This document shows, in pieces, positions 1 through 13,329 of a stretch of DNA of 42,369 bases. The translations under genes were made by a program, and so were the position numbers. The stretch comes from a virus (Duplodnaviria > Heunggongvirae > Uroviricota > Caudoviricetes), in the IMG/VR virus record IMGVR_UViG_3300032038_000031, positions 1 through 42,369 of that record. One strand, given 5' to 3'. Position 1 is the first letter of the stretch. Each line of letters opens with the position of its first letter. The notes below the pieces were generated by a model. It had not been told where the DNA came from, searched no databases, and worked only from the letters and a program-made list of their open reading frames with translations.

Positions 1-1
1 T

Positions 2-30
2 ATATTATCACATTTTTAAAGGTTTGTCAA
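2..30 (-). promoter_or_regulatory. sigmaA-type promoter pointing out of the left edge of the window
   Basis: Minus strand TTGACA-17bp-TAATAT with a TGn extended -10. Confidence 0.6.
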
Positions 31-48
31 GCCTTTTTTGAAATTTTC

Positions 49-120
49 TTAAAAAAGATTTTTCCAAAACTGGTAAATACAAAATCCGCCTAAAACAGTG
101 GCAATCAAACACACACTCAT
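49..120 (-). CDS. 23-aa hydrophobic peptide MSVCLIATVLGGFCIYQFWKNLF (not in the ORF track)
   Basis: AAGGAG RBS upstream of ATG at 120, TAA at 51-49, and an extended -10 (TGGTATAAT) at 163-155. Confidence 0.55.
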   Translation of the reverse strand: MSVCLIATVLGGFCIYQFWKNLF

Positions 121-182
121 TTTTTTTTGCTCCTTTCTTCATTTCTGTAATTAGATTATACCATTCAAAAAAGCAAAATACT

Positions 183-940
183 AGTGGGATTTTGCACAAA
201 GTTAAATAAAAATTTTTGTGCAATTTGTACAGTAAAAATTAAAATTTTGTAGACCTGCACAAAAAGGTCCGCCTTTTCTTTAGAGTTTTTGTGCATTTTA
301 ACTAAAAAAATAATTTTGTGCATTTTACACAACAGATTAGTTATTTTTTAAATAATTTTGTGCAGATTACCAAAAAATAATTTCGTCATTTTGTACAGTT
401 TTTAGGAAAAAACTAACTCATTTTTGTGCAGAACGCCGAAAGGTAAAAATTGGCAAGACTACCAAAAATTGGTAAAATTGGATGGCTTCGTTGTGTTTCG
501 AACTTTTGATTTATCAATTATTGATTTGTTAACAAATTCTAAATCAACTGTTGAGAAAAAGAAAGTTGATTTGTAAATGATTGATCTTTGAATAGTTTAT
601 TTGTAAATCATTTCAGGAAAAAATGCCAATTTTTGGCAACAAAAAAACTCTGTCAAAATTTGGAAGAATTACCAAAAATTGGTAACAACGGACAACTTTG
701 TTGTGTTTCGAACTTTTGACTAGTAAATTATTACTTTGTCAGCTTTTTACTTTTGACCATTTCAACAGTAGATAGTTTAAAAGTAAACCTTCTAGATCAG
801 CATTGTTTCCTTTGCAACTGATCAAAAGTGAACAGTTAACTTGTTAATTGTTTCATTGTCAATTGTTTACAAGTAAACTTCGTCATTTTGCACAAAATTA
901 GGAAAAATTACCAAAAAATGTTTGTGCAAAATGACGAAAA
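183..940. repeat. Cluster of about 12 degenerate 7-3-7 dyads, consensus near TTGTGCA-N3-TGCACAA
   Basis: Examples at 216, 289, 316, 358, 382, 424, 670, 879 and 921. Positions 879-896 and 921-938 are a perfect 18-bp inverted repeat. Confidence 0.65.
460..715 (+). repeat. Duplicated module TACCAAAAATTGGTAA...GTTGTGTTTCGAACTT, 210 bp apart
   Basis: Identical 16-mers at 460/670 and at 490/700; each copy directly precedes a 15-bp lattice array. Confidence 0.85.
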
Positions 941-1198
941 AAAATTTTGCAAAAAATACTTGACTTCTGCAAATCGGTTCGGCTTGAATGTTACCGAACC
1001 GTTCACTTTTAAACCTTTTACTTTTGAATTATTTATTTATTAACATTATACAATTAAATACTTTTTTTTGAACATTTTTAAAAGTAAAAGGTTGCGCTGT
1101 AAATAATTGAGGTGTTGACTTTTGGGAATTAAATTATTTATTTTATTTGTAAAATTTTGATAAGAAAATAGTTGACTAGTAAATAGTTTACAATTTTT
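506..1198. repeat. Left 15-bp-pitch arrays of degenerate 12-bp palindromes (506-607, 716-877, 1002-1118, 1142-1198)
   Basis: Boxes such as TTGATTTGTAAA, TTGACTAGTAAA, TTTACAAGTAAA and TTTAAAAGTAAA fall on an exact 15-bp phase within each block. Confidence 0.8.
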
Positions 1199-1231
1199 CG
1201 GGGTTAAAATGTCCGTTTACAATAAATAAAT

Positions 1232-1417
1232 TTACCAATTATTGCCATTTGGGGGGTGGGGATTTTTAGCAAAAACTGGTAAATTTCGGCTAGAATTTTC
1301 TGAACTTATCTTCACTTTAAAGCCAATTTCCGCACTATTTAATAAAGCCTTTAAATCAATAGTAGAAAGTAATTGATCTAATACACTAATTTCTTGTAAA
1401 GTGAATTTTTCAGTCAT
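1232..1417 (-). CDS. hypothetical protein, 61 aa
   Basis: AGGAGG RBS and its own sigmaA promoter upstream. Confidence 0.65.
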   Translation of the reverse strand: MTEKFTLQEISVLDQLLSTIDLKALLNSAEIGFKVKISSENSSRNLPVFAKNPHPPNGNNW

Positions 1418-1453
1418 ACTTATTCTAGCCTCCTTTCTTTATTTTTATAATAA

Positions 1454-1482
1454 ATTATAACAATTTTTTTTATAAAATGCAA
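1454..1482 (-). promoter_or_regulatory. sigmaA promoter
   Basis: TTGCAT-17bp-TATAAT on the minus strand. Confidence 0.7.
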
Positions 1483-1490
1483 TAAAAATA

Positions 1491-1512
1491 ACCACAGAAA
1501 AAATCTGTGGTT
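1491..1512 (-). terminator. intrinsic terminator
   Basis: ACCACAGA/TCTGTGGT stem followed by a T-rich tract on the minus strand, downstream of ORF 1751-1521. Confidence 0.6.
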
Positions 1513-1520
1513 TATATATA

Positions 1521-1751
1521 TCAATAGATTATTAACAAAGCTATTGTAATACCCGTAAAAACAATATCTTTTATTAGATTAGCTTTTGGGAGCTTTAAGG
1601 CTAAATCTCTAATTACTCCAAATACATTAGCCAATAAGTATAATATTTGAGCAAATATATACATATAGCCTACAGTAATTTGACCTATTACGCATAAAAG
1701 CAGTGTAATATATCCTACAATTTCCCATAGAATAAATATTTTTTTGTCCAT
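1521..1751 (-). CDS. small membrane protein, 76 aa, about 3 hydrophobic segments
   Basis: Hydrophobic translation; GAAAGGGGGTG RBS upstream. Confidence 0.75.
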   Translation of the reverse strand: MDKKIFILWEIVGYITLLLCVIGQITVGYMYIFAQILYLLANVFGVIRDLALKLPKANLIKDIVFTGITIALLIIY

Positions 1752-1808
1752 ATTAATTCACCCCCTTTCTTAATTTCTTTAATGTTAAGGGCTATCCCCT
1801 TATTTCTT

Positions 1809-1982
1809 TTACATATCTCCTATAATATGTAATAGACAAGTATTAAAACAACTTGTAATTACATCCATATTATTTGACTGATCGCATATAGAGCAGAACC
1901 ATAATGTAAATGGATCTTCCATTCCTAATTCATGAATTACAATATCTTGTAGTTTTTCTTTTGTATATTCTATCTTGTTCAT
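1809..1982 (-). CDS. hypothetical protein, 57 aa (start reassigned to MNKIEY)
   Basis: AGGAGG RBS directly upstream of the ATG at 1982. Confidence 0.7.
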   Translation of the reverse strand: MNKIEYTKEKLQDIVIHELGMEDPFTLWFCSICDQSNNMDVITSCFNTCLLHIIGDM

Positions 1983-2013
1983 AAGTAACCTCCTATGTTT
2001 ACTATACAAGGGA

Positions 2014-2205
2014 CTAACCCCTGTATAGTAAATTTTTTCTTACAATTCCGTCAATTTCTTTAGCACAGTTAACTGCTTTATCAAGATCATTAAAACCGCC
2101 CCAATACCAAAATTGACCATTTTTATCGGTATATCTTGCTACTAAATATTGACAAGACTTACCATATTCGGTAACATTATTAATTTCTTGGAATCGTGTA
2201 ATCAT
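2014..2205 (-). CDS. hypothetical protein, 63 aa
   Basis: GGAGG RBS; ATGA overlap with the upstream gene. Confidence 0.75.
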   Translation of the reverse strand: MITRFQEINNVTEYGKSCQYLVARYTDKNGQFWYWGGFNDLDKAVNCAKEIDGIVRKNLLYRG

Positions 2206-2633
2206 ACACTATACACCTCCTTTTTCCATTCTTCAAGTTTTCTTTTATATGTATCTTCTGCTAATGTTAAATCTCTATATGCTACAGCATATGGAGTTAC
2301 ATCCATATAATCTACCCAATAAAGGTCTTCTACTCTGCAAATTTTAGGTGTAGGTACTCGGCTACCAAATTTGTTTTCAAATTCAACAACAATACAATAT
2401 TCACTACCATCATAAAAAAACAATGGTTCATCATATGGTAGGCTATAATCACTAGCTACTCTGAAAATTTGCCACATTTTGGCAAGTTCTCTATTAGACC
2501 CAACATAAATATCAGCCCTTAATTTGCTATCCCAATTCTGAGTACCTGTTAGATAAGGGCAACCAAGTTCACCTTTTTCAACTCTTAAAGTTGAAGTGTA
2601 ATTTTTGTAACCATCAATTGTAATTTTTTTCAT
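2202..2633 (-). CDS. hypothetical protein, 143 aa
   Basis: AAAGGA RBS; first gene downstream of the promoter at 2691-2719. Confidence 0.8.
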   Translation of the reverse strand: MKKITIDGYKNYTSTLRVEKGELGCPYLTGTQNWDSKLRADIYVGSNRELAKMWQIFRVASDYSLPYDEPLFFYDGSEYCIVVEFENKFGSRVPTPKICRVEDLYWVDYMDVTPYAVAYRDLTLAEDTYKRKLEEWKKEVYSV

Positions 2634-2690
2634 AATCCTTTACCTTGATAAGCCCTGTAGGCTTATCCCTTTCCTTAATTCTTTAATTAT

Positions 2691-2719
2691 ATTATACAGT
2701 AAAAAACTTAAAAAAGCAA
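2691..2719 (-). promoter_or_regulatory. sigmaA promoter with extended -10
   Basis: TTGCTT-17bp-TATAAT on the minus strand. Confidence 0.7.
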
Positions 2720-2798
2720 GAATTGTAACAAAGTTGTAACCATTTATTACAGCATTGTAACCATTTTATTTTTTTCTTAAATTACCATTCTCTGGCAG

Positions 2799-3441
2799 TT
2801 GCTTTTGAAATAGTGAACAAAACAAAGGTTTCAAAGTAAATAGATCATTTGTACAATAGTTCAAAAGTAACAATGTATTTTACACAGTGTTCTAAGTAGA
2901 AAGTTGACTGTTGATTATTTCAAAAATAACAAGATTATTAATAACTAATTGACTAGTAAAAGATCTCCTTTAAAACATTGTAATAATACATAATTAATTA
3001 GTTAACAGTTAATAAGTAGATTATTGTTAATGTAATAATTAATTAGTTAACAGTTAATAAGTAGATTATTGTTAATGTAATAATTAATTAGTTAACAGTT
3101 AATAAGTAAATTATTGTTAATGTAATAGTTAATTAATCAACAGTTAATAAGTAAATTATTGCTAATACAATAGTTAACAAGTAAACCTTTGCTAATGAAT
3201 TATTTAATAAATAAAATATTTACTTATCAACATTTGACTTGTAAACTGTTAACAAATAAACTGTTTACTTATCAACAATTAAATAGTAAACTGTTAACAA
3301 ATAAACTGTTTACTTATCAACAATTAAATAGTAAACTGTTAACAAATAAACTGTTTACTTTTGGGATAATTGATAATTAAACCGTTTACAAAAAAACAAT
3401 TTCAAAATAAAAAATTTACTAGTAAACATTTGACTTGTAAA
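2799..3441. repeat. Right 15-bp lattice: 38 in-phase positions (2799-3365) plus 5 after a 1-bp shift (3370-3441); contains two 45-bp higher-order tandem arrays (2990-3169, 4 copies; 3241-3360, 2.7 copies)
   Basis: Each 45-bp unit splits into three 12+3 subunits, e.g. ctg-TTAACAAATAAA-ctg-TTTACTTATCAA-caa-TTAAATAGTAAA. The perfect palindrome TTTACTAGTAAA occurs at 3415. Confidence 0.9.
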
Positions 3442-3641
3442 AAGGTCCGCAAGCGAACCTATCAAAATTCGTTACAGAGGGGGTGTGATTTTAACGGCTT
3501 GAGTCTACTTTTCTTAGCATCAAAAGGAAGCATTCTGAAAATATATTTTATTATAAAAACAATATTATTTTGTGGGTGGGGGTGTGTTTTTGGGAAAAAT
3601 AAAAATTTGATTTTATTTTTTTATTTTAGCTCCACCTCTCT

Positions 3642-3740
3642 CACTCCAAATAATTTTTTCAATTTTGGAATTTCCACTCCAAATAAATTTTTCAATTTCA
3701 GAAAACATAAACCACACTCCAAATAATTTTTTCAATTTTG
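3642..3740 (+). repeat. Three direct repeats of about 26 bp, CACTCCAAATAA(T/A)TTTTTCAATTT
   Basis: Copies start at 3642, 3675 and 3715. Confidence 0.85.
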
Positions 3741-3776
3741 AAATCCCCGTTCTAAATAAAAATTTTAAACCATCGC

Positions 3777-3805
3777 TTGATTTTGCAAAAAAAATATGAT
3801 ATAAT
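3777..3805 (+). promoter_or_regulatory. sigmaA promoter with extended -10, at the head of the morphogenesis module
   Basis: TTGATT-17bp-TATAAT preceded by TGA; AAGGAG RBS downstream. Confidence 0.7.
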
Positions 3806-3835
3806 TAATTAAAAAAGGAGCGATAAAAATAAAAA

Positions 3836-4900
3836 ATGTCAGAATTAAAATTAGATTATACAATCACCTCTCCACAAGAGAGAAACAAATTAGTAAATAA
3901 TATTTTAGAACAAACACCGTCATCTCAGCTGACTCCTAAATATCTTGAAATATTAGCTGATTATTTAGTTATTCCCGCAGAAAAAGAAGAAAAAAAGAAA
4001 AAACAAATTCTTACTAATAACCATATGGTAACAGTTAACAAAAGAGAAACTTCTTATCAGGGGATGGTAGATAAATTAGAGAATGGAGAAGACGGTTTAT
4101 ATAACCTTATGTCAGAGATGGGGAAAAATGTTCTTCTTGTCCCTAAAATTTCAATTACCGCAAAAGATATAGAAGAAGTACCTGGACTAAAAGAGTTAAG
4201 GGCGGAAATCGAAAAAATTAAAGCTTTAGAAAAAACTGCTCGAGGTAAACGAAAATATTTATTAAAAAAGCAATTAATTGAAATGTGTCAAGACCAATAT
4301 ATTTTAAAAAATTCTTATAGAAAAACACTTCAATTTCAAAAGCCTCAACGCAGTTTTACTCAATTTAATTTTGATGAACATCTGTCAGTTGCGGAAGATG
4401 GTAATATTCAATCAGATAGCCGCATTAATTTTATGAATCCGGCTCATATATCTGCTCTTCTCCGCAACTATTCCGCAATGAAAGAAGACTCTTGGGGCAA
4501 TTTTTCTAATGACTCTTGGTACATTATGGAGGACTTAGACAATTTAATAGAATCCGCCTTAAAAGAAAAATTCCCGCTTTATTATGATTTAACTGTTTTA
4601 AAGATAGAGGGGGCATCAAATGCGGAAATACAACAACAGCTAAAAGAGAAGCATGGTATAACTCATTCTATTGAATATCTCTCTTCATTGTGGCGAAATA
4701 AAATTCCTAAATTGTTAGCGGATAAAGCTCAAGAAGATTATCTAATTTGGTATTATACAAATGTTGAAAAGGGGAAATGGAAAAGATGTTCTAGATGCGG
4801 TGAAATTAAACTAGCTCATAGCAAATTTTTTACTAAAAACAAAAGCAGTAAAGATGGTTGGTATTCTATTTGTAAATGTTGCCGCAATAAGAAAAAGTAA
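3836..4900 (+). CDS. putative DNA-binding regulator, 354 aa, with an HTH-like segment and a C-terminal CxxC...CxxC Zn finger
   Basis: LKIEGASNAEIQQQL...HSIEYLSSLW resembles a sigma-region-4 HTH; KRCSRCGE...ICKCC forms the Zn finger. Confidence 0.5.
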   Translation: MSELKLDYTITSPQERNKLVNNILEQTPSSQLTPKYLEILADYLVIPAEKEEKKKKQILTNNHMVTVNKRETSYQGMVDKLENGEDGLYNLMSEMGKNVLLVPKISITAKDIEEVPGLKELRAEIEKIKALEKTARGKRKYLLKKQLIEMCQDQYILKNSYRKTLQFQKPQRSFTQFNFDEHLSVAEDGNIQSDSRINFMNPAHISALLRNYSAMKEDSWGNFSNDSWYIMEDLDNLIESALKEKFPLYYDLTVLKIEGASNAEIQQQLKEKHGITHSIEYLSSLWRNKIPKLLADKAQEDYLIWYYTNVEKGKWKRCSRCGEIKLAHSKFFTKNKSSKDGWYSICKCCRNKKK

Positions 4901-4943
4901 TGGGCTATTTTAAATCATTCTTTTATAATTATTTTAAATATTA
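4901..4943 (+). promoter_or_regulatory. candidate phage late-promoter motif
   Basis: TGGGCT, then about 31 nt later a T-run followed by ATATTA; the motif recurs at 6 other gene starts. Confidence 0.4.
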
Positions 4944-4961
4944 AAAAAGGAGGAAAAATAA

Positions 4962-6188
4962 ATGGCGGAAGAACAACAAAAACGAACTTGCATTAAATGC
5001 GGTCGTTTAATGTTAGAAAAAGAATTCTACACCAAAAAGAATGGCGAAAAAACAGATATGTGTAAAAAGTGCTTAACTATGCATGTAGACTGTTGGGATC
5101 CTGATACTTTTACTTGGATTTTAAAAGAAATAGATGTCCCCTATATTCCTCAAGAATGGAATGTTTTAAGGGATAAGGCGTATAAAGAAAAAAAAGGCAA
5201 AATGTCTGGTACTGCGGTGATGGGTAAATATCTATCTAAGATGCATTTAACTCAATTTAAGCAGTTTACATGGGCGGATTCAGAAAAAATATTAGAACAA
5301 TTAAAAGAAACAGCTGAAACCCGCAAAGAAGCTCAAAAGCAATTTGAGAAAGAATTAAAAGAGCAACTAGCAAAAGGCGAGATTTCAGAAGCCCAATATA
5401 AAACTTATATTAGCACAGAAACACAACATGAAGAAGATTTACAAGCGGAAATTGGAGATACTGTTGGAGCAAAGAATGCTTTTAATGAAGATAATTTTAT
5501 GTCAGAAGAGGAATTATTTAATTATCAAGATGAATTAACTCAAGAAGATAAAATTATGTTAGCAACAAAATGGGGGCGTTTATATCAGCCTCATGAGTGG
5601 GTCTTCTTAGAACAGCACTATAGAGAGATGGAACAAGGATTTGATATTCAAGATCCAGACTCAATTAATACTTTAAAAATTTTAAGTAAAACTTATTTAA
5701 AGATGAATCAAGCTATTGATTCAGGAGATATAGACACATATCAAAAGTTATCTAGAGTATATGATTCTCTAAGAAAATCTTCAAAATTTACTGCCGCACA
5801 AAAGAAAGAAGAAAAAGAGGATGCGGTTGACTGTGTGGGGAATTTAGTTGCCTATTGTGAAACCCATGGAGGGCAAATCCCACGTTATGAAATTGAAGAA
5901 CCGAAAGATAAAGTTGATATTATTATAAAGGATTTAAAAAGATATACAAAAGATTTAGTCTATGAAGATACTGCTCTTGCTCGTCAAATTGAAGACTATT
6001 TGAAAAAAAGAGAGATTTTAGATCAAGAGGCAAGAGATGAAGCCAAAAGAAGATCTATGACTCTTGAAGAAGAACAAGAAGAAGCAATTATTTCTGATGA
6101 AGATCATATAGCATTTTTGGCGGATGAAGAAAAACAAAGAAAAGCAGATAATGATCAACAAGGGGAGGCGGCAAGTAATAGATTATGA
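4962..6188 (+). CDS. probable terminase small subunit with an N-terminal Zn finger, 408 aa
   Basis: Lies immediately upstream of terL with an overlapping stop/start; CIKCG...MCKKC motif. Assignment is mainly positional. Confidence 0.5.
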   Translation: MAEEQQKRTCIKCGRLMLEKEFYTKKNGEKTDMCKKCLTMHVDCWDPDTFTWILKEIDVPYIPQEWNVLRDKAYKEKKGKMSGTAVMGKYLSKMHLTQFKQFTWADSEKILEQLKETAETRKEAQKQFEKELKEQLAKGEISEAQYKTYISTETQHEEDLQAEIGDTVGAKNAFNEDNFMSEEELFNYQDELTQEDKIMLATKWGRLYQPHEWVFLEQHYREMEQGFDIQDPDSINTLKILSKTYLKMNQAIDSGDIDTYQKLSRVYDSLRKSSKFTAAQKKEEKEDAVDCVGNLVAYCETHGGQIPRYEIEEPKDKVDIIIKDLKRYTKDLVYEDTALARQIEDYLKKREILDQEARDEAKRRSMTLEEEQEEAIISDEDHIAFLADEEKQRKADNDQQGEAASNRL

Positions 6189-9100
6189 GTTTAGATAATA
6201 TATTAACCTTAACTAGTGGAGTTAAAAAACAGGGCTTATCTGAAGAACGCCTAAAAGCTCAACTACCGCATTTAAGAAGTCTAATTGCTCAATATAGAGA
6301 ATATCCTGATTTATTTATTGATGAAATAAAAGGAGAAAATTGCTCTTTTGAATTTTTCTTTTATCAAAGAATTTTCTTAAGAGTTGTAATGCGACATCGA
6401 TATGTTTATGCAACTTTTCCTAGAGCTTATTCAAAGAGCTTTTTGTCAATGACGGTTTTAATTATTCGTTGCATCTTATATCCAGGATCTCACCTTTTTG
6501 TAACAACAGGAGGAAAAGAACAGGCGGCTTCTATTACTGTTGCTAAAATTGAAGAAATATGTAAACTAATTCCAGCTTTACAAAATGAGATAAACTGGGA
6601 AAGAGGTAAAACTAAACATTCTAAAGATAATGTAAAATATTTATTTAAGAATGGTTCTGTAATAGATATTTTGGCGGCACGAGAAAGTTCGAGAGGACAA
6701 AGAAGAACGGGTAGAAGAATTATTATTACTTCTTTGGTCATTTTCGAATAATCTTCTTATTATCTTTTTTATATTTGTATGTTAGGAAAATATAAAGAAG
6801 GAGAAGATAAACAGATGATTGGATATTTATACCATATTACTAATTTAATTAACAATAAAACTTATATAGGAAAAACTAATAATATTGATAGACGAATTTC
6901 TCGTCATTTTTCAGATTTAAAAAAAGGTCAACATCATTCTCATAAATTGCAAAGAGCTTTTAACAAATATGGAGAAAAAGTTTTTAAAGTTACTTATGAA
7001 ACTTTTTTAGATATTTCTGAAAAAGAACTCGCTGACAAAGAAATCTCTGAAATTAAAAAATTTAATAGTTATTATAATGGATATAATGAGACCTTAGGAG
7101 GAGAAGGTCATGCTCTTTTATTTGATTTTGAAGAGCAGGTTTTAATTTATCAGATTGGACAACGATATGATGGAATTAAACATAAATTAGCAAATTATTT
7201 TAAATGTGATAGAACTACTTTAACAGCGATTATGAAAAAAGATGTTTTAAGTCATATCCAATATTCAGAAGAAAAACTTCAAACATTAATTCAACAAGTA
7301 GGAATTACGAAAGATTATTTAAAAGAAAATTATAAAAACAATTATACAAAAAAATTAAATAAATTTCAAGTTTTTTGTATTTTAGCTGAAATTGAATTTA
7401 ACAATATTTCACAAGCAACTTGTGGAAGAGCTTGTGGAGTAACAAAAGATTTAGTTCAAAATATTGTAAGTGGACGAACTTACAAAAAAGAATATCAAGC
7501 ATATATCCAAATGGATCAAGAAAAAAAGAAAAAATATTTAAATCAACTCCCTATTGATAGAACAGCTAAAAAGATGTCTAAAGTACAAATCACACAAGCT
7601 CTTGTTGATTATATTTTAGATAACAAAGGAAAAAAGACTCAAACTGAAATTGCAAAAGAATTAAATATTGATAGAAAACGAGTAAGTCGAATAATTAATA
7701 AAGAAACTTATCTTAATTTTATTAAAGATTGGGAAAAAAGACACCTCCATAGTTAATCTGCCCGAATTGCGGAAAAAAACTGGAACCCTAAACATATTTA
7801 TTATGCAAGGGAATCAGAACTGAAGGCGTAAGCCAGGTGCAACGCATAGGTATTGACGCAAGAATAATATACCCACGAGTCCGCAACAATTACCTAACAA
7901 ATTGAAAAGATATGCTGAACTTATAGGAAACTATAAGAAGTAAAGGATAAAAAGCCTTTACGATAACAAATTGGGACTAATGGAAGAGTGTGTTCTTATT
8001 GATCAAACAGCTCTTAATGAAATAATCATTCCTACAACCAATGTTGATAGACGATTACCAGGCGGAGGCTCTGCACCAGAAGAGATGGTTAATAAAAGTC
8101 AAATTTATATTACTACAGCTGGGTTAAGAATTCTTTGGCTCAGGATAAATTATTCTAATTGCTGGAACGCTAAGTTATTTAACTATAAATAATATGCCAA
8201 TCAGCAGCGAAGTATTTTATTAAATATAGAAAGGATACCAACAATGAAAGATATAAAATATTCAAAAATAAAGCCAAATCTATATGCTATTGAAAAAGAT
8301 GGTAGAGTTTGGAGTAAATATACTAAGAAGTATATGAAAATTTCATTGGATAAAGATGGATATTCTACTATTTCTCTTAAAAATGATAGAAATGGGTATT
8401 CCCATTTTGGAATACACAGATTATTAATGATTGCTTTTAAACCTATAGATAATATGGAGAATATGCAAGTTAATCATAAAGATGGGAATAAAAGCAATAA
8501 TGTTTTATCTAATTTAGAATGGGTAACTTGTAAAGAAAATCTAAAACATGCTAGAGATAATAATTTAAATGTTACTTTTGGACAAAAAGGAACTAATCAT
8601 CCTAATAATAAAATTTCAGAGAAAGAAGCTAAAAAAATTATTGAATTAAATAAAAAAGGCTATACTCCAAAAGAAATTTTAAAAGAAGTCCCAAATGCGA
8701 CAAAAAATATTATCAATAGTATTATTCATAATAGAACTTGGAAACATTTAAAGAGATAATAAAATAATGTGCTCAACGACTATCCCGCAAGGGAGTACAC
8801 TATAAGCGATTGATAGTGGAAAAGAATAACAAATACAATAAGTATTAGAAGATATAGTCTAATCTTATAGGAAACTATAAGCAGTTCATAAGAGAACGTA
8901 TATAATAGTAGCGTATTATATAGAAAAATATGGGAAGAATTCATTTGCTTATAAAAAGTTAATTGAATTATTAATTCAATCATTAATTGAACCAGATGCT
9001 TGTATGATTATGGGCGGAACTTATGAAACTCCAGTTGCTGAAGGGCTATTGAATGCTGATTTTGTAAGGCAACTAAAATTACAAGGGACTTTTAATGAGG

Positions 9101-11178
9101 ATTCTTTTGACAGAGAATATAGAAGTAAATGGAGCGGAGATGTAGAAAATGCTTTCTACTCTGCAGAAAAATTTGATAAATATAGAGTATTAAATCAGCC
9201 AGAAAATGAAGCTAGTGGAAGAAGTACTAAAACAACTTATTATGTTCTAGGTGTCGATGTAGGACGTATTGGTTGTACAACAGAAGTAGCTGTCTTTAAA
9301 GTATGTCCACAAATTCAAGGTGCGGCGATGAAAAGCTTAGTTAATATTTTTACCTTTGAAGCAGAACACTTTGAAGAACAAGCTATTCATTTAAAACGAT
9401 TATATTATCGCTATAAAGCAAGAGTATTAGCTATTGATGCTAATGGATTAACACAACTAGTCCCTTATATCAGCAATGATATAAGCAAACTCTTTTAATT
9501 GCTGGAAAGCTAAGTTCTATAATAGAATATGCTAATCAGCAGCTAAGAATTAAGAATACTTGAAGCTTTTATAGGAGGCTTAAGATGAAAGAAAAAAAAT
9601 TACAATTTGTAAATATAATTTAATTTATGATTACTATGTATGTGATGATGGTACTATATATAGTGCTAGAACAAATAAAACATTATCACCCCAATTAGAT
9701 AAAGATGGATATGAAAAAGTCCAAATGATGTCTGACGATGGAAAAAGACATAGATATTCAGTACATAGATTAATTCTTGAAAATTTTAACCCTGTTGAAG
9801 GAATGGAAAATTTACAAGTTAATCATATTGACGGAAATAAAAGAAATAATAAATTAAGTAATTTAGAATGGACAACTTGTCAAGAAAATATTGATCATGC
9901 TATTAATAATAATTTAAGAGCTAAAGTTAATGGAGCTTCTAAATTAACTATTGAACAAGTTAAAGAAATTTTTATTCGATCTAATAATGGAGAAACAAAT
10001 ATCTCTTTAGGAGAAGAATTTGGAGTTCATCCAGACCAGATTGGACGAATTAAAAATAGACATTCTTGGAAAGAAATAACTAAAGATTTATAATTTAAAA
10101 TAATTTTAAGTATTCTTAATTAAAGTTCAACGACTATCCCTTTGGGGAGTACATTAGAAGCTAATGCTAATGGAAATGGAGAGCGTCCTTTTAAAGGATG
10201 ATGATATAGTCTAATCTTATAGGAAACTATAAGCAGTTCATAAGAGAACGTATTTAGATGTTGCGATCTAAATAGAATATAATGTAGGGGTTGGTTTAAT
10301 TGATTTTATGACTCGTTCTCAAATTGACCCTGAGACGGGTGATGTATTACCTCCATTTGGAGTTGAAGGTGGAACAACCGCTGATATTATGGATCAATAT
10401 AAGAAAATTCGTGGAGCAGATGTAGAAGAAGATGCTATGTTTTTAATAAAAGCTAATGCTCCAATCAATACAGAAGCTTATTCTTATGCTCAAACACAAA
10501 TGTCTAGTGGTAAAGTTAAATTTTTAATTGATGAAAACCAAGCTAAAATGAAACTAATGGAAACAAAAGTAGGACAAAATATGTCCCCAGAACAGCGAAA
10601 TGATAAATTAAGACCTTTTGTTCATACTACTATTCTAAGAGAACAAATGCTAAGAGATTTGGCAGCTTAATTAGTAATAATTAAGAATAATAACCTTTCT
10701 AATTGCAAGAAAATCCAAATATTTTTTGGACAATTTGCAGCAAAGCTATTTATATATTTATACAAAAGCAAAAATGCGTCAGTCATATTAGAAATATAAA
10801 TAGAATGTTCAACGACTATCCCGTAGGAGGATGAGAAGCCTCAATAGGAGTAGGGCACAAGTTAATGGTGTGGGTGAGAATCCCTTAAATCGAAATGGAA
10901 GGCTCCTAGCAATAGGATGAAGACATAGTCTAATCTATATGGTAACATATAGCATAAATATATTTTATGGTATTAATTTTACGCATTAATATAAATATCA
11001 ATGAAATTTAGTAGAAGAAAATGAAGGTCAAAACATTATTTTAAAACAGTCTTCTCGTAATATTAAAAAAGATAAATTTTCTGCTTTTTTATATGGTTTA
11101 TATTATATTAAAAGAGATGAAGATAGAAAAAGAAAAAGAAAGAAAAGAGATATTAGTGATTTTATATTCTTTTCTTAA
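6185..11178 (+). CDS. terL: terminase large subunit, spliced, 578 aa; exons 6185-6712, 7974-8124, 8933-9448, 10285-10651, 11004-11178
   Basis: Exons sum to 1737 nt (579 codons). Junctions restore RRTG|GLMEEC (Walker B), TTAG|WKNS, DANG|LGVGLIDF (nuclease) and ML|NLVEE. Walker A-like FPRAYSKS is in exon 1 and KKDKFSA in exon 5. Confidence 0.92.
6713..7973 (+). mobile_element. group I intron 1 of terL, with GIY-YIG HEG in the P1 loop
   Basis: 5' exon ends in U and the intron ends in G. P1 CGGGU|AGA pairs with UCUGCCCG (7757-7764); P3 TTGCGGA/TCCGCAA; P7 GCATA/TATGC; P9 with a GAAA loop. Confidence 0.88.
6779..7756 (+). CDS. GIY-YIG homing endonuclease (start probably 6815)
   Basis: GYLYHITNLINNKTYIGKT...R...H...E...N motif followed by C-terminal HTH-like repeats; AAGGAG RBS at 6798. 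Confidence 0.9.
   Translation: MLGKYKEGEDKQMIGYLYHITNLINNKTYIGKTNNIDRRISRHFSDLKKGQHHSHKLQRAFNKYGEKVFKVTYETFLDISEKELADKEISEIKKFNSYYNGYNETLGGEGHALLFDFEEQVLIYQIGQRYDGIKHKLANYFKCDRTTLTAIMKKDVLSHIQYSEEKLQTLIQQVGITKDYLKENYKNNYTKKLNKFQVFCILAEIEFNNISQATCGRACGVTKDLVQNIVSGRTYKKEYQAYIQMDQEKKKKYLNQLPIDRTAKKMSKVQITQALVDYILDNKGKKTQTEIAKELNIDRKRVSRIINKETYLNFIKDWEKRHLHS
8125..8932 (+). mobile_element. group I intron 2 of terL (IA-like), with HNH HEG in the P6 loop
   Basis: P1 CTGGGT/GCTCAG; P10 AATTCTTT pairs with the 3' exon; P4 TGCTGG/TCAGCA; R element CTCAACGACTA; S element AAGATATAGTCT; terminal G. Confidence 0.92.
8244..8759 (+). CDS. HNH homing endonuclease (I-HmuI-like), 171 aa
   Basis: HRLLM...QVNHKDGNKSNNVLSNLEWVTCKEN plus a C-terminal HTH. 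Confidence 0.92.
   Translation: MKDIKYSKIKPNLYAIEKDGRVWSKYTKKYMKISLDKDGYSTISLKNDRNGYSHFGIHRLLMIAFKPIDNMENMQVNHKDGNKSNNVLSNLEWVTCKENLKHARDNNLNVTFGQKGTNHPNNKISEKEAKKIIELNKKGYTPKEILKEVPNATKNIINSIIHNRTWKHLKR
9449..10284 (+). mobile_element. group I intron 3 of terL (IA-like), with HNH HEG in the P6 loop
   Basis: P1 GGAT/GTCC; AATTGCTGGAA and AATCAGCAGC elements; R GTTCAACGACTA; S GATATAGTCT; a 14-bp stem (9548-9561/10108-10121) brackets the ORF. Confidence 0.92.
9585..10093 (+). pseudogene. HNH homing endonuclease with a frameshift at an A8 run (169 aa if restored)
   Basis: AGGAGG plus ATG at 9585 stops at 9621; the -1 frame from 9599 is open through QVNHIDGNKRNNKLSNLEW to 10093. Confidence 0.75.
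10652..11003 (+). mobile_element. group I intron 4 of terL, no ORF, 352 nt
   Basis: P1 TGCT/GGCA; P10 AGATTT/AAATTT; R GTTCAACGACTA; S AAGACATAGTCT; terminal G. Confidence 0.9.
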
Positions 11179-11266: not shown

Positions 11267-11623
11267 TTGAGAGCCTCAAGAGGAGAAATTAAAATTTATG
11301 ATATATTAACTGCGGCAGAGTTAAATTTTAAAGAAGAATATTCTTTTCCTGATTTAAACAGTAATTTAGGTAGACCTTTAAGATTTGATTTTGCAATATT
11401 TGATGATGACGGAGATTTAGACTTTTTAATTGAGTATCAAGGTATACAACATTATGAACCAAAATCAAAATTTGGTGGTTTACAAGGTTTAAAGAAACAG
11501 CAGTTTAATGATATGAAGAAAAGAGAATATTGTAAAAAACATAATATTAATTTAGTTGCAATTCCCTATTGGGATGAGAATAGAATTAATTATGATTATA
11601 TTATGAAGGCAGCTGGATATTAA
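11267..11623 (+). CDS. small PD-(D/E)XK / Vsr-like endonuclease-domain protein, 118 aa
   Basis: E...LRFDFAI...LIEYQGIQHY motif; TTG start with AGGAGG RBS. Confidence 0.75.
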   Translation: MRASRGEIKIYDILTAAELNFKEEYSFPDLNSNLGRPLRFDFAIFDDDGDLDFLIEYQGIQHYEPKSKFGGLQGLKKQQFNDMKKREYCKKHNINLVAIPYWDENRINYDYIMKAAGY

Positions 11624-11641
11624 TGAAAGCTAAAGATAAAG

Positions 11642-11670
11642 TTGCTTAGTGTAAAAATTTTTGGTATAAT
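11642..11670 (+). promoter_or_regulatory. sigmaA promoter upstream of portal
   Basis: TTGCTT-17bp-TATAAT with a TGG extension. Confidence 0.6.
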
Positions 11671-11682
11671 TAAAATAGAGAA

Positions 11683-13329
11683 ATGAGGTGTATTAAGAAT
11701 TTGATTCAAGAAAAACATTCAGAAACACGAATGGAAAAAATTCGTAAAAAAGGTTTTGATATGACTCATAATACTTATGAAGATATTCCTTTATCTGAAA
11801 AAGACTATGGAACTCCTTTAACTGATTATGCAAGAAAAGAAAAAGATAAAAGAATAAAAGTAGGATTAAAACAACTTAGTAACGCTTTATTATCTCTTGG
11901 GGATTTAGATAATATTGACAATAGTTATCTAAGAAAAGAAGATGTTTTAAGAGCTATTGCTAATCAAGATAGTAAAGAATTAAGAGATATTTCAAATTAT
12001 TTTTATAAAGTCAGTGGTATATATAATCGTTTATGTCGATATATGGCATATATGTATAAATATGATTGGATGGTAGTTCCTACTGCGAAAATAGATCAAC
12101 CAGATACTAAAAAAGAACAAAAAACTTTTTATGATATATTACAATTTTTAGATAATTTTGGGGTTAAAAAGTTTTGTGGGGAAACAGCTTTAAAAATTAT
12201 TAAGAATGGTTGCTATTACGGTTATTTAATTGAAAAGAATAATCAATTAAGTATTCAAGAGTTACCTCCAAATTATTGTCGTTCAAGATTTAAAACTGCT
12301 GATGGTCGTGATGCAGTAGAGTTTAATGTTAAATTTTTTGATGACTCTTTTAGAGATGTGAATCAAAAGATGAAAATGTTAAATTTATTTCCTGATGATA
12401 TAAAAAGAGGTTATTTATTATATAAACAAGGTAAGTTACCACAAGATTTTTCGGGGGATTCAAAAGGCTGGTACTTATTAGATACAGAAAAAGCCATTAA
12501 ATTTGATATATGCGGAGAAGATTTTCCATTTTTTATGGCGGCTATTCCCGCAATTATTGATTTAGATGAGGCTAAAGGGCTAGAAAGAAAAAAGATGAAA
12601 CAACAGTTATTAAAAATTGTTGTTCAAACTTTACCTCTTGATAAAAATGGAGATTTAATTTTTGATTCAGATGAAGCAAGAGTTCTTCATAATAATATCG
12701 TATCTATGTTAAAAAATGCTGTTGGAGTTGAGGTACTAACTTCTTTTGGTAATATTGATATTGAAGATATAGCTCAACAAAAAACAAATGCAGTATCTGA
12801 TGACTTAGAAAAAATGGAGAGGGCAGTTTTTAATGAAGCTGGTGTTCCTCAAAATCAATTTAATGCAGAAGGTAATGTTGCTCAAGAAAAATCAATTTTA
12901 AATGATGAAGCTTCAATGTTTAATTTAGTTCAACAATTTGAAGATTTTTTAAATTATATTATAAAACCTTTTAATAAAAAATCTGGTAAAGTGTCTTTTA
13001 AAGTACAAGTTTTACCAACTACAATTTATAATTATCAAAATTTATCTAAGTTATATAAAGAACAAACTCAAATTGGTTATTCTAAATTTTTACCTCAACT
13101 TGCTCTTGGACAATCTCAAAGTTCAATTTTAGCAAGTGCTTATTTTGAAAATAAAGTTTTAAAATTAAATGATGTATTTATTCCGCCAATGATGTCTAGT
13201 ACAATGAGTTCTAACACTCAAAAATCTAATGATTCTATTGAAAAGAAAAAAGCGGGAAGACCATCAAAAGAAGAACAAGGTGAATCTGTTAGTGATAAAA
13301 CGATTCAAAACCAAGAAAGTTTATCTTAA
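11683..13329 (+). CDS. portal protein (start may be the TTG at 11701)
   Basis: About 540 aa, located after terL; GAGGTG RBS before 11701; typical portal size and a low-complexity charged C-terminus. Confidence 0.8.
   Translation: MRCIKNLIQEKHSETRMEKIRKKGFDMTHNTYEDIPLSEKDYGTPLTDYARKEKDKRIKVGLKQLSNALLSLGDLDNIDNSYLRKEDVLRAIANQDSKELRDISNYFYKVSGIYNRLCRYMAYMYKYDWMVVPTAKIDQPDTKKEQKTFYDILQFLDNFGVKKFCGETALKIIKNGCYYGYLIEKNNQLSIQELPPNYCRSRFKTADGRDAVEFNVKFFDDSFRDVNQKMKMLNLFPDDIKRGYLLYKQGKLPQDFSGDSKGWYLLDTEKAIKFDICGEDFPFFMAAIPAIIDLDEAKGLERKKMKQQLLKIVVQTLPLDKNGDLIFDSDEARVLHNNIVSMLKNAVGVEVLTSFGNIDIEDIAQQKTNAVSDDLEKMERAVFNEAGVPQNQFNAEGNVAQEKSILNDEASMFNLVQQFEDFLNYIIKPFNKKSGKVSFKVQVLPTTIYNYQNLSKLYKEQTQIGYSKFLPQLALGQSQSSILASAYFENKVLKLNDVFIPPMMSSTMSSNTQKSNDSIEKKKAGRPSKEEQGESVSDKTIQNQESLS

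Follow-up and report, generated by a model that had tools for sequence, protein, structure and literature searches.

Lattices of a palindromic box at a 15-bp pitch beside the early operons of an uncultured SPbeta-like phage of the cattle gut

At least four lattices of one palindromic box lie within 8 kb beside the late genes of the phage described here. Each lattice is roughly 400–750 bp long and holds 25–50 box positions, and across the lattices one genome copy presents roughly 100 or more box sites. In lattice C, at positions 2799–3441, a 12–14-bp palindrome, (G/T)TTnAyWWrTnAA(C/T), recurs every 15 bp. We propose that such a lattice is an amplified array of operators along which a dimeric regulator would polymerise, silencing or insulating the early cassettes and the early/late switch, an account that we regard as plausible though somewhat short of an even chance. 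Repeated operator families and cooperative protein coats are each known; the extreme and ordered form found here is unusual. A search of the literature for phased 15-bp arrays in phages returned nothing relevant.

The phage and the lattice region

The window, by which we mean the whole stretch of DNA that was analysed, corresponds to bases 1–42,369 of a phage contig of 106,369 bases, whose GC content is 27.5%. The contig is ∼73% complete according to CheckV, with about 27% of the genome outside it. The phage lineage occurs in bovine gut metagenomes from 12 studies. The Pfam families YonG_N, YonD_N and YonB are carried by relatives of the neighbouring genes; this is a distant SPbeta-like phage, uncultured, of the cattle gut; more than 5,500 homologues were found for the gene neighbouring lattice C, a large family of SPbeta-like gut phages. 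The phage may be virulent. The 106-kb, ∼73% complete contig yielded neither an integrase nor an MrpR-like recombinase-fold gene; PF00589 gave no match in it, MrpR being perhaps too diverged for this profile. A lysogeny-repressor role is therefore unsupported.

The main features around lattice C are arranged as follows.

466–1190, no strand: lattice B, the same box at a 15-bp pitch, with blocks at 506–596, 716–866, 1002–1122 and 1142–1187 and repeated leader modules
1232–2633, minus strand: early operon 1, five small ORFs of 143, 63, 66, 76 and 61 aa, between lattices B and C
2690–2719, minus strand: probable leftward promoter of operon 1, a perfect TATAAT with a −35 element TTGCTT at 17 bp, read by eye
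3777–3805, plus strand: rightward sigma70-type promoter, TTGATT-17-TATAAT with TG, scoring 10/12 and serving the first rightward gene
3836–4900, plus strand: gene that begins the rightward cluster, with a match to PHROG 5767 (annotated ‘sigma factor’)

Gene orientation switches at lattice C, as the initial annotation had observed, from minus-strand ORFs at 1232–2633 to plus-strand ORFs from 3836 onwards. The divergent promoters that it placed on either side were borne out unequally. The rightward one at 3777 has the high score given above, and the leftward one near 2719, ∼80 bp off the lattice edge, has a perfect −10 element but a −35 element matching at only 3/6 positions and hence is absent from the promoter scan. 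Neither the ORFs of operon 1 nor the small genes left of lattice C gave family matches. The gene at 3836–4900 had no Pfam, NCBIfam or PDB sequence match, leaving its ‘sigma factor’ label without other family support; it is followed by a YonG_N-type gene and then by an intron-split terminase gene, with terL lying 2.7 kb downstream of lattice C. The content of operon 1 varies between strains, being replaced or partly deleted in two related strains (L145 and L146) and in sequencing run X1.

Architecture of lattice C

Lattice C is built from successive 15-bp units, each consisting of a 12-bp box and 3 bp, and is divided into a degenerate left flank, a core with two tandem arrays, and a right block.

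2799–2948, no strand: left flank, degenerate, 10 positions of which about 4 are box-like, in phase with the core
2949–3353, no strand: core, with a box at 2949, two weak positions and then 24 consecutive in-phase positions at 2994–3339
2990–3177, no strand: 45-bp tandem array 1, 4.2 copies at 95% (TRF), a trimer of 15-bp units
3204–3360, no strand: 45-bp tandem array 2, 3.5 copies at 93% (TRF), a trimer of 15-bp units
3355–3441, no strand: right block, 6 positions with a shift of +1 bp, including the ideal palindrome

Both the TRF output and the register confirm the initial reading of the two 45-bp arrays as trimers of a 12+3 unit, and the ideal palindrome TTTACTAGTAAA is present at 3415–3426, where it had been reported. 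A PWM trained on the nine distinct array boxes only found its best offset at 0 at position 2949 and in 23 of the 24 rows at 2994–3339; row 3189 is in phase yet weak (PWM 3.5), with a local best at +7. In six successive rows at 3354–3429 the best offset was +1. The left flank (2799–2948) had an in-phase PWM sum of +6.6, the best of the 15 phases (the next-best being −48), and none of 5000 shuffles scored as high. The phase thus continues through non-repeated DNA to the left and right of the two arrays and shifts by 1 bp at 3354, both of which had been claimed from inspection.

A motif-free stacking statistic, in which the sequence is written in rows of length p and the column chi-squares are summed, ranked period 15 top for 2799–2989 (z 6.3) and for 3355–3445 (z 5.2), and within the left flank periods 15 and 30 ranked highest. 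Plain autocorrelation at lag 15 reached significance throughout lattice C (arrays, middle and right part) except in the left flank (z 0.4), where lag 30 gave a z of 3.8. Autocorrelation outside the arrays had been named as the check on a true 15-bp period; the middle, the right part and the stacking statistic bear the period out, and lag 15 in the left flank does not.

A walk along lattice C scored 33 of the 43 positions as box-like (PWM ≥ 3), compared with a mean fraction of 0.04 and a maximum of 0.14 in 300 control stretches. The ∼10 positions that are not box-like lie mostly at 2844–2989. The initial description of the lattice is therefore correct save for these degenerate positions. The pitch is strict within blocks only, each lattice consisting of several in-phase blocks without one continuous register. 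The logo derived from 70 distinct units is a 14-bp palindrome, with neighbouring sites separated by a single base.

Four lattices alternate with early operons

Lattice B gave a stacking z of 13.6 at period 15 (466–900). Across the 106-kb contig, phase coherence rose above background only at 466–1190 and 2761–3450, and the strict 14-mer frame occurred once in the other 103 kb. A contig 99% identical to the window (L001) reaches 2.1 kb past the window's left end and adds a third lattice, in which 13 boxes share a phase across 480 bp. The whole region is covered by a 126.7-kb contig of the same phage (L142), in which a fourth lattice is present. The order in this contig, along the direction of early transcription, is lattice C and operon 1, lattice B and operon 2, lattice A and operon 3, and lattice D and a further unit.

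The placement of the lattices follows one plan. Each begins at most about 60 bp past the end of the preceding small early operon, and a strong sigma70-type promoter of the next operon lies 0–430 bp downstream of each. Lattices A and B are 280–430 bp away from the promoters, nearer the end of the preceding operon, and lattice C has the operon 1 promoter on one side and the divergent promoter of the first rightward gene on the other. Two perfect TTGACA-17-TATAAT promoters precede operon 3, and one promoter has its −35 element overlapping the final box of lattice D. Lattices A and B share duplicated segments with 85% identity.

The box is conserved between strains

The lattices are kept at the same places in L145 (82–86% nucleotide identity) and L146 (about 92%). 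Orthologous lattices were aligned and the columns sorted by their position in the unit, six positions being consensus and nine other. Consensus positions were identical in 0.91 of the columns in L145, compared with 0.74 for the others (Fisher p 6e-8), and in 0.95 compared with 0.90 in L146 (p 0.0016). Neighbouring non-lattice intergenic DNA was intermediate, at 0.82 and 0.93, respectively. The higher conservation of the consensus positions argues for purifying selection on the box, although alignment guidance or gene conversion among the repeats could account for part of the contrast.

The case for selection on the pitch is less clear. Seven indels between strains keep the phase of the lattices (15, 15, 30, 45, 45, 120 and 210 bp), and others of 64, 44/46 and 8 bp are not multiples of 15. 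Array 1 differs by 45 bp in copy number between strains; array 2 carries an indel of −30 in L001 and of +15 in run X1. Slippage in a 15-bp repeat yields multiples of 15 without selection. The argument of the initial annotation, that a phase kept while the sequence drifts signifies selection on spacing, is weaker than it was put, because old tandem arrays keep their phase unselected and some indels break it. The cassettes inserted in L145 and L146 sit at the lattice B edge.

Relatives contain isolated palindromes of the same type

No 15-bp lattice was found at the syntenic place in 19 loci of relatives whose neighbouring protein is 48–70% identical, and in most of these loci an interval of only about 150 bp separates the divergent genes. 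Synteny had been put forward as a check on the lattice; it fails at this distance and holds among the closer strains described above. Isolated GTTAAATTTTTAAC-type palindromes in the same frame are nevertheless enriched in four relatives, with 6 copies in L137, 8 in L141, 6 in L140 and 3 in L014 against an expectation of 0.4–0.6. The six copies in L137 lie within 880 bp upstream of the neighbouring gene. In L141, the sole locus compared with gene calls, 8 of 8 copies are intergenic and fall in a 10-kb early region. The frame of the palindrome depends on the sub-lineage, being GTTTAC..GTAAAC in the window phage and GTTAAA..TTTAAC in the relatives. These isolated copies make the box look like an ancestral early-region operator of the clade that was multiplied into lattices in the window's lineage.

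Other apparent instances of the box were rejected or uninformative. A high-scoring box upstream of a winged-helix gene in L141 is the −35 region of an ordinary promoter. Corynebacterium phage Zion and its relatives, recovered as a BLAST match of the arrays, have a 400-bp AT-only repeat of 7/8-bp units and no 15-bp boxes. A loose four-box IUPAC scan of viral contigs revealed no further lattice among the matches listed, which were chance AT-rich matches.

Candidate binders of the box

Operons 2 and 3 contain one gene each for a 130-aa protein, at 9543–9935 and 12584–12976 of L142, and the two proteins form a paralogous pair with 25% identity. A profile search collected ∼60 small relatives. The structure predicted from 54 aligned relatives (pLDDT 91.6) contains an N-terminal helix and hairpin, a 40-residue helix and a C-terminal winged helix; an earlier model of the operon-2 paralogue from 5 sequences (pLDDT 55.7) was not used. 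The predicted winged helix resembles those of the ArsR/SmtB, NolR, Fur, PadR and MarR types (Foldseek E about 0.01), with VIA-align Z values up to 9.8 and an rmsd of 1.4 Å over 60 residues. This fold match is generic, and there is no TubR among the matches listed. ArsR/SmtB-, Fur- and MarR-type winged-helix proteins usually bind palindromes as dimers. The two 130-aa proteins are the best candidate binders, linked to the box by their position only.

The distribution of the family does not follow that of the box. Members are also encoded in the lattice-less relatives L140, L141 and L016, and the 13 kb of L014 contain palindromes and no family member, indicating that there is no exclusive co-occurrence with the box. 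The short contigs that encode distant members offered no gene context.

A host factor may instead be the binder. A host global regulator or nucleoid protein would then read the boxes, and the lattices would couple the early genes to host physiology or soak the factor up. The lack of a phage protein specifically tied to the box speaks for it, as do the roughly 100 or more sites per genome copy, which would make an effective sink. The difference in frame between phage sub-lineages is more typical of co-evolving pairs of phage repressor and operator, and to our knowledge none of the CodY, cre, parS, Fur-type 7-1-7 and FNR consensus sequences fits the box, which also counts against a host factor. 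We consider the host-factor explanation rather unlikely.

A putative coat on an amplified operator array

In the operator array proposed here, a putative dimer would bind each palindromic box. Because the sites abut, occupying 14 bp of every 15, the bound dimers are expected to polymerise into a continuous protein coat. A pitch of 15 bp corresponds to ∼1.43 helical turns, so successive dimers would be placed about 154 degrees apart and the sheath would spiral round the DNA. Cooperative filling would lead to a switch-like occupancy. The coat could then spread onto, occlude or loop to the neighbouring promoters, shutting off or insulating the early cassettes; it could gate the promoter of the first rightward (late-side) gene, and the sheath could block read-through from the preceding operon. 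A silencing platform read by a dimeric protein had been among the initial suggestions, of which it fits best; it accords with the 14-bp palindromic logo, the selection on the box, the location of four lattices upstream of early promoters and the isolated palindromes of the lattice-less relatives, the identity of the dimer being presumptive. Against the operator array stand the distance of lattices A and B from the promoters, the strain indels that are not multiples of 15, and the number of sites, as we know of no repressor that requires more than 100.

Two further roles may be attached to the lattices. Replication would multiply a sink of ∼100 or more sites per genome copy, which might, as a speculation, serve as a timing mechanism. 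The lattices probably double as recombination linkers, that is, as junctions for the gain, loss or swap of early cassettes, given that the cassette points coincide with lattices and that the 85% identical segments are duplicated between them. It is conceivable, if unlikely, that all of these properties belong to a single new device, in which a dimer polymerised on 15-bp-pitch lattices acts as a silencer, a cassette insulator, a copy-number-sensitive sink that times the early-to-late transition, and a linker for exchange.

Several known systems share part of this design. In SPbeta, a 15-bp repeated element (SPBRE), bound by the master repressor MrpR/YopR, occurs in some ten promoter regions, one of them the yonP promoter region that heads the late operon (PMC10516654). 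The likeness is one of length and placement: in both cases an element of ∼15 bp is distributed over many intergenic promoter regions of an SPbeta-type phage, the lattices here preceding four early promoters as well as the first rightward gene. The SPbeta sites are single or few per promoter, unlike the abutting lattices of 25–50 positions, and the 106-kb contig gave no match to a recombinase-fold repressor or integrase.

Phage phi29 offers a parallel for the coat. Its p4/p6 complex forms at the divergent early (A2b/A2c) and late (A3) promoters, where p6 binds every 24 bp with low sequence specificity and mainly reads bendability. A multimeric coat of fixed repeat length between leftward early and rightward late promoters, switching the programme, would be common to both systems, the coat in our phage being putative. 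The window phage differs in having a period of 15 bp and a defined palindrome in place of the 24-bp, low-specificity pattern of p6.

The stoperators of cluster A mycobacteriophages (L5 gp71) are asymmetric, dispersed genome-wide and not known to abut. They resemble the present boxes in that one short intergenic site is used tens of times by one repressor, and the isolated palindromes of the lattice-less relatives are similar; the sites described here differ in their palindromic sequence, their restriction to the early region and their tight packing at a constant pitch. Arbiol et al. (2010) reportedly described PeSL (promoter-early stem-loop) cassettes in T4-type phages, a PeSL consisting of a promoter and an RNA stem-loop. 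There too, repeated regulatory modules lie on either side of small early genes, at the points of cassette shuffling, but the module in our phage is an array of putative protein-binding sites, not a promoter with an RNA stem-loop.

If binding of the proposed kind occurs, a sequence-specific site set edge to edge over more than 600 bp, repeated in four lattices of one early region and subject to selection, would bring operator families and protein coats together in one arrangement, and would be a natural template for long ordered filaments of dimers on DNA. The lattices could also show how the number of sites sets the timing of a phage programme. Control of early genes and exchange of cassettes in this region bear on a large and unstudied group of SPbeta-like gut phages.

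Alternative explanations of the lattices

Three of the remaining explanations call for a single site, and the presence of four lattices does not fit one origin, one pac site or one centromere. The initial annotation had considered an origin. The lattices would in that case be a replication origin or an iteron field for copy-number control, with an initiator that is bound, titrated or handcuffed by the arrays. Lattice C lies at the strand switch and at the minimum of the cumulative GC skew (3–4 kb), it is AT-rich (GC 0.24), and array 2 contains three one-mismatch DnaA-box look-alikes at a 45-bp spacing. The lactococcal c2-type phages, which have their origin between divergent early and late promoters, provide a precedent that counts in favour. 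The skew minimum, which had been listed as a check and was indeed recovered, is confounded with the flip in gene orientation that coincides with it; AT-richness is general; and one-mismatch DnaA boxes occur 37 times genome-wide. No initiator-like gene family lies beside the lattices, and the claim of a single origin is not upheld. We regard an origin or iteron field as quite unlikely.

SPbeta-type phages have their genome opening point, and pac with it, where the late operon starts, between yonR and yonP (bioRxiv 10.1101/2021.11.22.469490), and a packaging function was considered on this basis. Lattice C occupies the same relative position as the SPbeta opening point, 2.7 kb upstream of terL, and could be the pac region, or mark the edge of a long terminal repeat, with the terminase small subunit or an end-binding protein reading it. 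The contig depth in four runs is 1.4–1.9 times higher to the left of 3018–3331 than to the right. However, in run X3, the best resolved, the depth steps at both lattices, from 349 (1–940) to 304 (1220–3018) and 188 (right of 3331), and in run X1 operon 1 has a depth of about zero with both flanks deep. Mixtures of strains with different cassettes explain these depth steps. Assembled contigs cannot show the ends of molecules, the records of the relatives are without end repeats, and neither three more lattices nor the isolated intergenic sites of the relatives would be expected of a pac site. The packaging explanation is accordingly judged very unlikely. The contigs from the RNA-labelled runs X18 and X19 are structured like DNA contigs and were uninformative on transcription.

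The lattices could instead be minisatellites that have no dedicated binder, expanded by slippage from a palindromic seed and kept mainly as homologous linkers for cassette exchange. The 45-bp copies are 93–95% identical and hence recent, the copy number varies between strains by 15, 30, 45 and 120 bp, and cassette breakpoints fall at a lattice edge, to which the 85% identical duplicate segments of lattices A and B may be added. Slippage alone does not account for the selective conservation of the consensus positions between strains, for the box-like sites that degenerate, non-repeated stretches keep in phase, or for the palindrome frame, which is the same as that of single intergenic sites in the relatives. 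Such an origin without a binder strikes us as very unlikely.

The remaining single-site explanation is a partition centromere of a plasmid-like prophage, working in the manner of TubR/tubC or ParR/parC. The known examples, TubR/tubC, ParR/parC of R1 and pSK41, and sopC of F, have 4–12 repeats at one locus beside an NTPase gene. They share with the lattices an array of many short tandem sites, on which small dimeric wHTH or RHH proteins bind side by side into a filament or ring. The tandem short repeats of the window phage, the small winged-helix dimer that is their presumed binder, and the small wHTH genes adjoining the repeats are all reminiscent of such a system, and an episomal state would be possible in view of the absence of an integrase from the 106 kb.

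The search for partition genes, which the initial annotation had advised, produced the two small 130-aa winged-helix proteins between the lattices but no TubZ/ParA-type gene. Neither a ParA/CbiA ATPase (PF01656) nor a tubulin-like GTPase (PF00091) was detected in the ∼73% complete 106-kb contig, in which the controls for both were matched, and there was no tubulin-family match among the genes scanned to the left of the lattices (about 9–20 kb of L142). The profile of actin-like ParM (PF06406) had no match in the 106 kb, and the controls were likewise without a match. No gene for an NTPase was detected within the 20 kb surrounding the lattices. The window phage differs from the known centromeres in this respect and in having four loci with dozens of sites each, interleaved with strongly promoted early operons. 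The centromere put forward in the initial annotation is therefore not supported, and of the explanations discussed it is the one to which we give the lowest probability.

Three other candidates were rejected directly: a promoter array or RNA-polymerase sink, since promoter-like sites numbered 27 against 25.9 expected, with no enrichment; a pentapeptide-repeat coding region, since the short ORFs that cross the lattices are in short frames with poor starts and the conservation is dyad-symmetric, not codon-like; and a structured RNA or tRNA, none of which was detected by Rfam or ARAGORN over 20 kb.

A second repeat family

The interval between lattice C and the rightward promoter contains a repeat of a different type.

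3642–3740, plus strand: second repeat family, three copies of CACTCCAAATAA followed by a T-rich run

The copy number of the CACTCCAAATAA repeat varies between strains, with joints at 3640–3746.

Uneven depth of the cassettes and the modular structure of lattice B

The cassettes parted by the lattices differ in contig depth across window 1–6500 in the sequencing runs X1, X3, X18 and X19. The cassette depths in run X3 include, for example, 349, 304 and 188, and by the same measure operon 1 (1232–2633, minus strand; five small ORFs) is almost missing from run X1. Lattice B, a row of palindromic boxes at a 15-bp pitch (466–1190), contains two blocks that are preceded by one common leader (ACCAAAAATTGG ... 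TTGTGTTTCGAACTT; window 461–505 and 671–715). The leader copies lie 210 bp apart, and the strain in run X19 is without exactly one 210-bp module of this kind.

A cluster of TTTTGTGCA / TGCACAAAA motifs is located between the operon-2 promoter and lattice B, at window 193–422 and 889–948. The first kilobase of the window holds 10 such motifs, compared with ∼0.5 per kb elsewhere, and the motif is also present in the early regions of L140 and L141, two relatives without lattices. On L142, the 126.7-kb contig of the same phage, the last gene of operon 2 encodes a 172-aa HAD-like hydrolase and the first gene (11450–12145) of operon 3 encodes a 231-aa protein of PHROG 20187 with weak similarity to DEDD exonucleases.

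Repeats upstream of operon 1 and the first rightward gene

Three copies of TTGTAAC(C/A), a short repeat family of their own, occupy window 2723–2772 between the operon-1 promoter and the left edge of lattice C (2799–3441). The operon-1 leader carries a stable hairpin of 8 pairs (2647–2667, minus strand) immediately before the ribosome-binding site.

Directly upstream of the rightward promoter at 3777, three copies of CACTCCAAATAA are followed by a T-rich run (window 3642–3740). Their copy number varies among strains, with joints that skip 33–40 bp. These repeats may serve the first rightward gene (3836–4900, plus strand) as an activator site. The equivalent place in L137, a lattice-free relative of 67% identity, holds an analogous pair of another 30-bp repeat. 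Upstream of that gene, L137 also carries a perfect 22-bp palindrome built on GTTAAATTTTTAAC that occurs six times, at irregular spacings of 47–77 bp (150–460), and the ends of the L137 contigs fall within this region. The first rightward gene's homologue in the relatives G001 and G002, to which L006 and L008 belong, has 3–4 in-frame TAG codons, which suggests that part of the clade recodes TAG.

The Corynebacterium phage Zion (L089), a rejected BLAST match of the arrays, has a 400-bp stretch (4410–4830) of 12% GC versus 47% for the phage; the stretch is made solely of TTAATTAT / TTAATAT units and bears no annotated feature.
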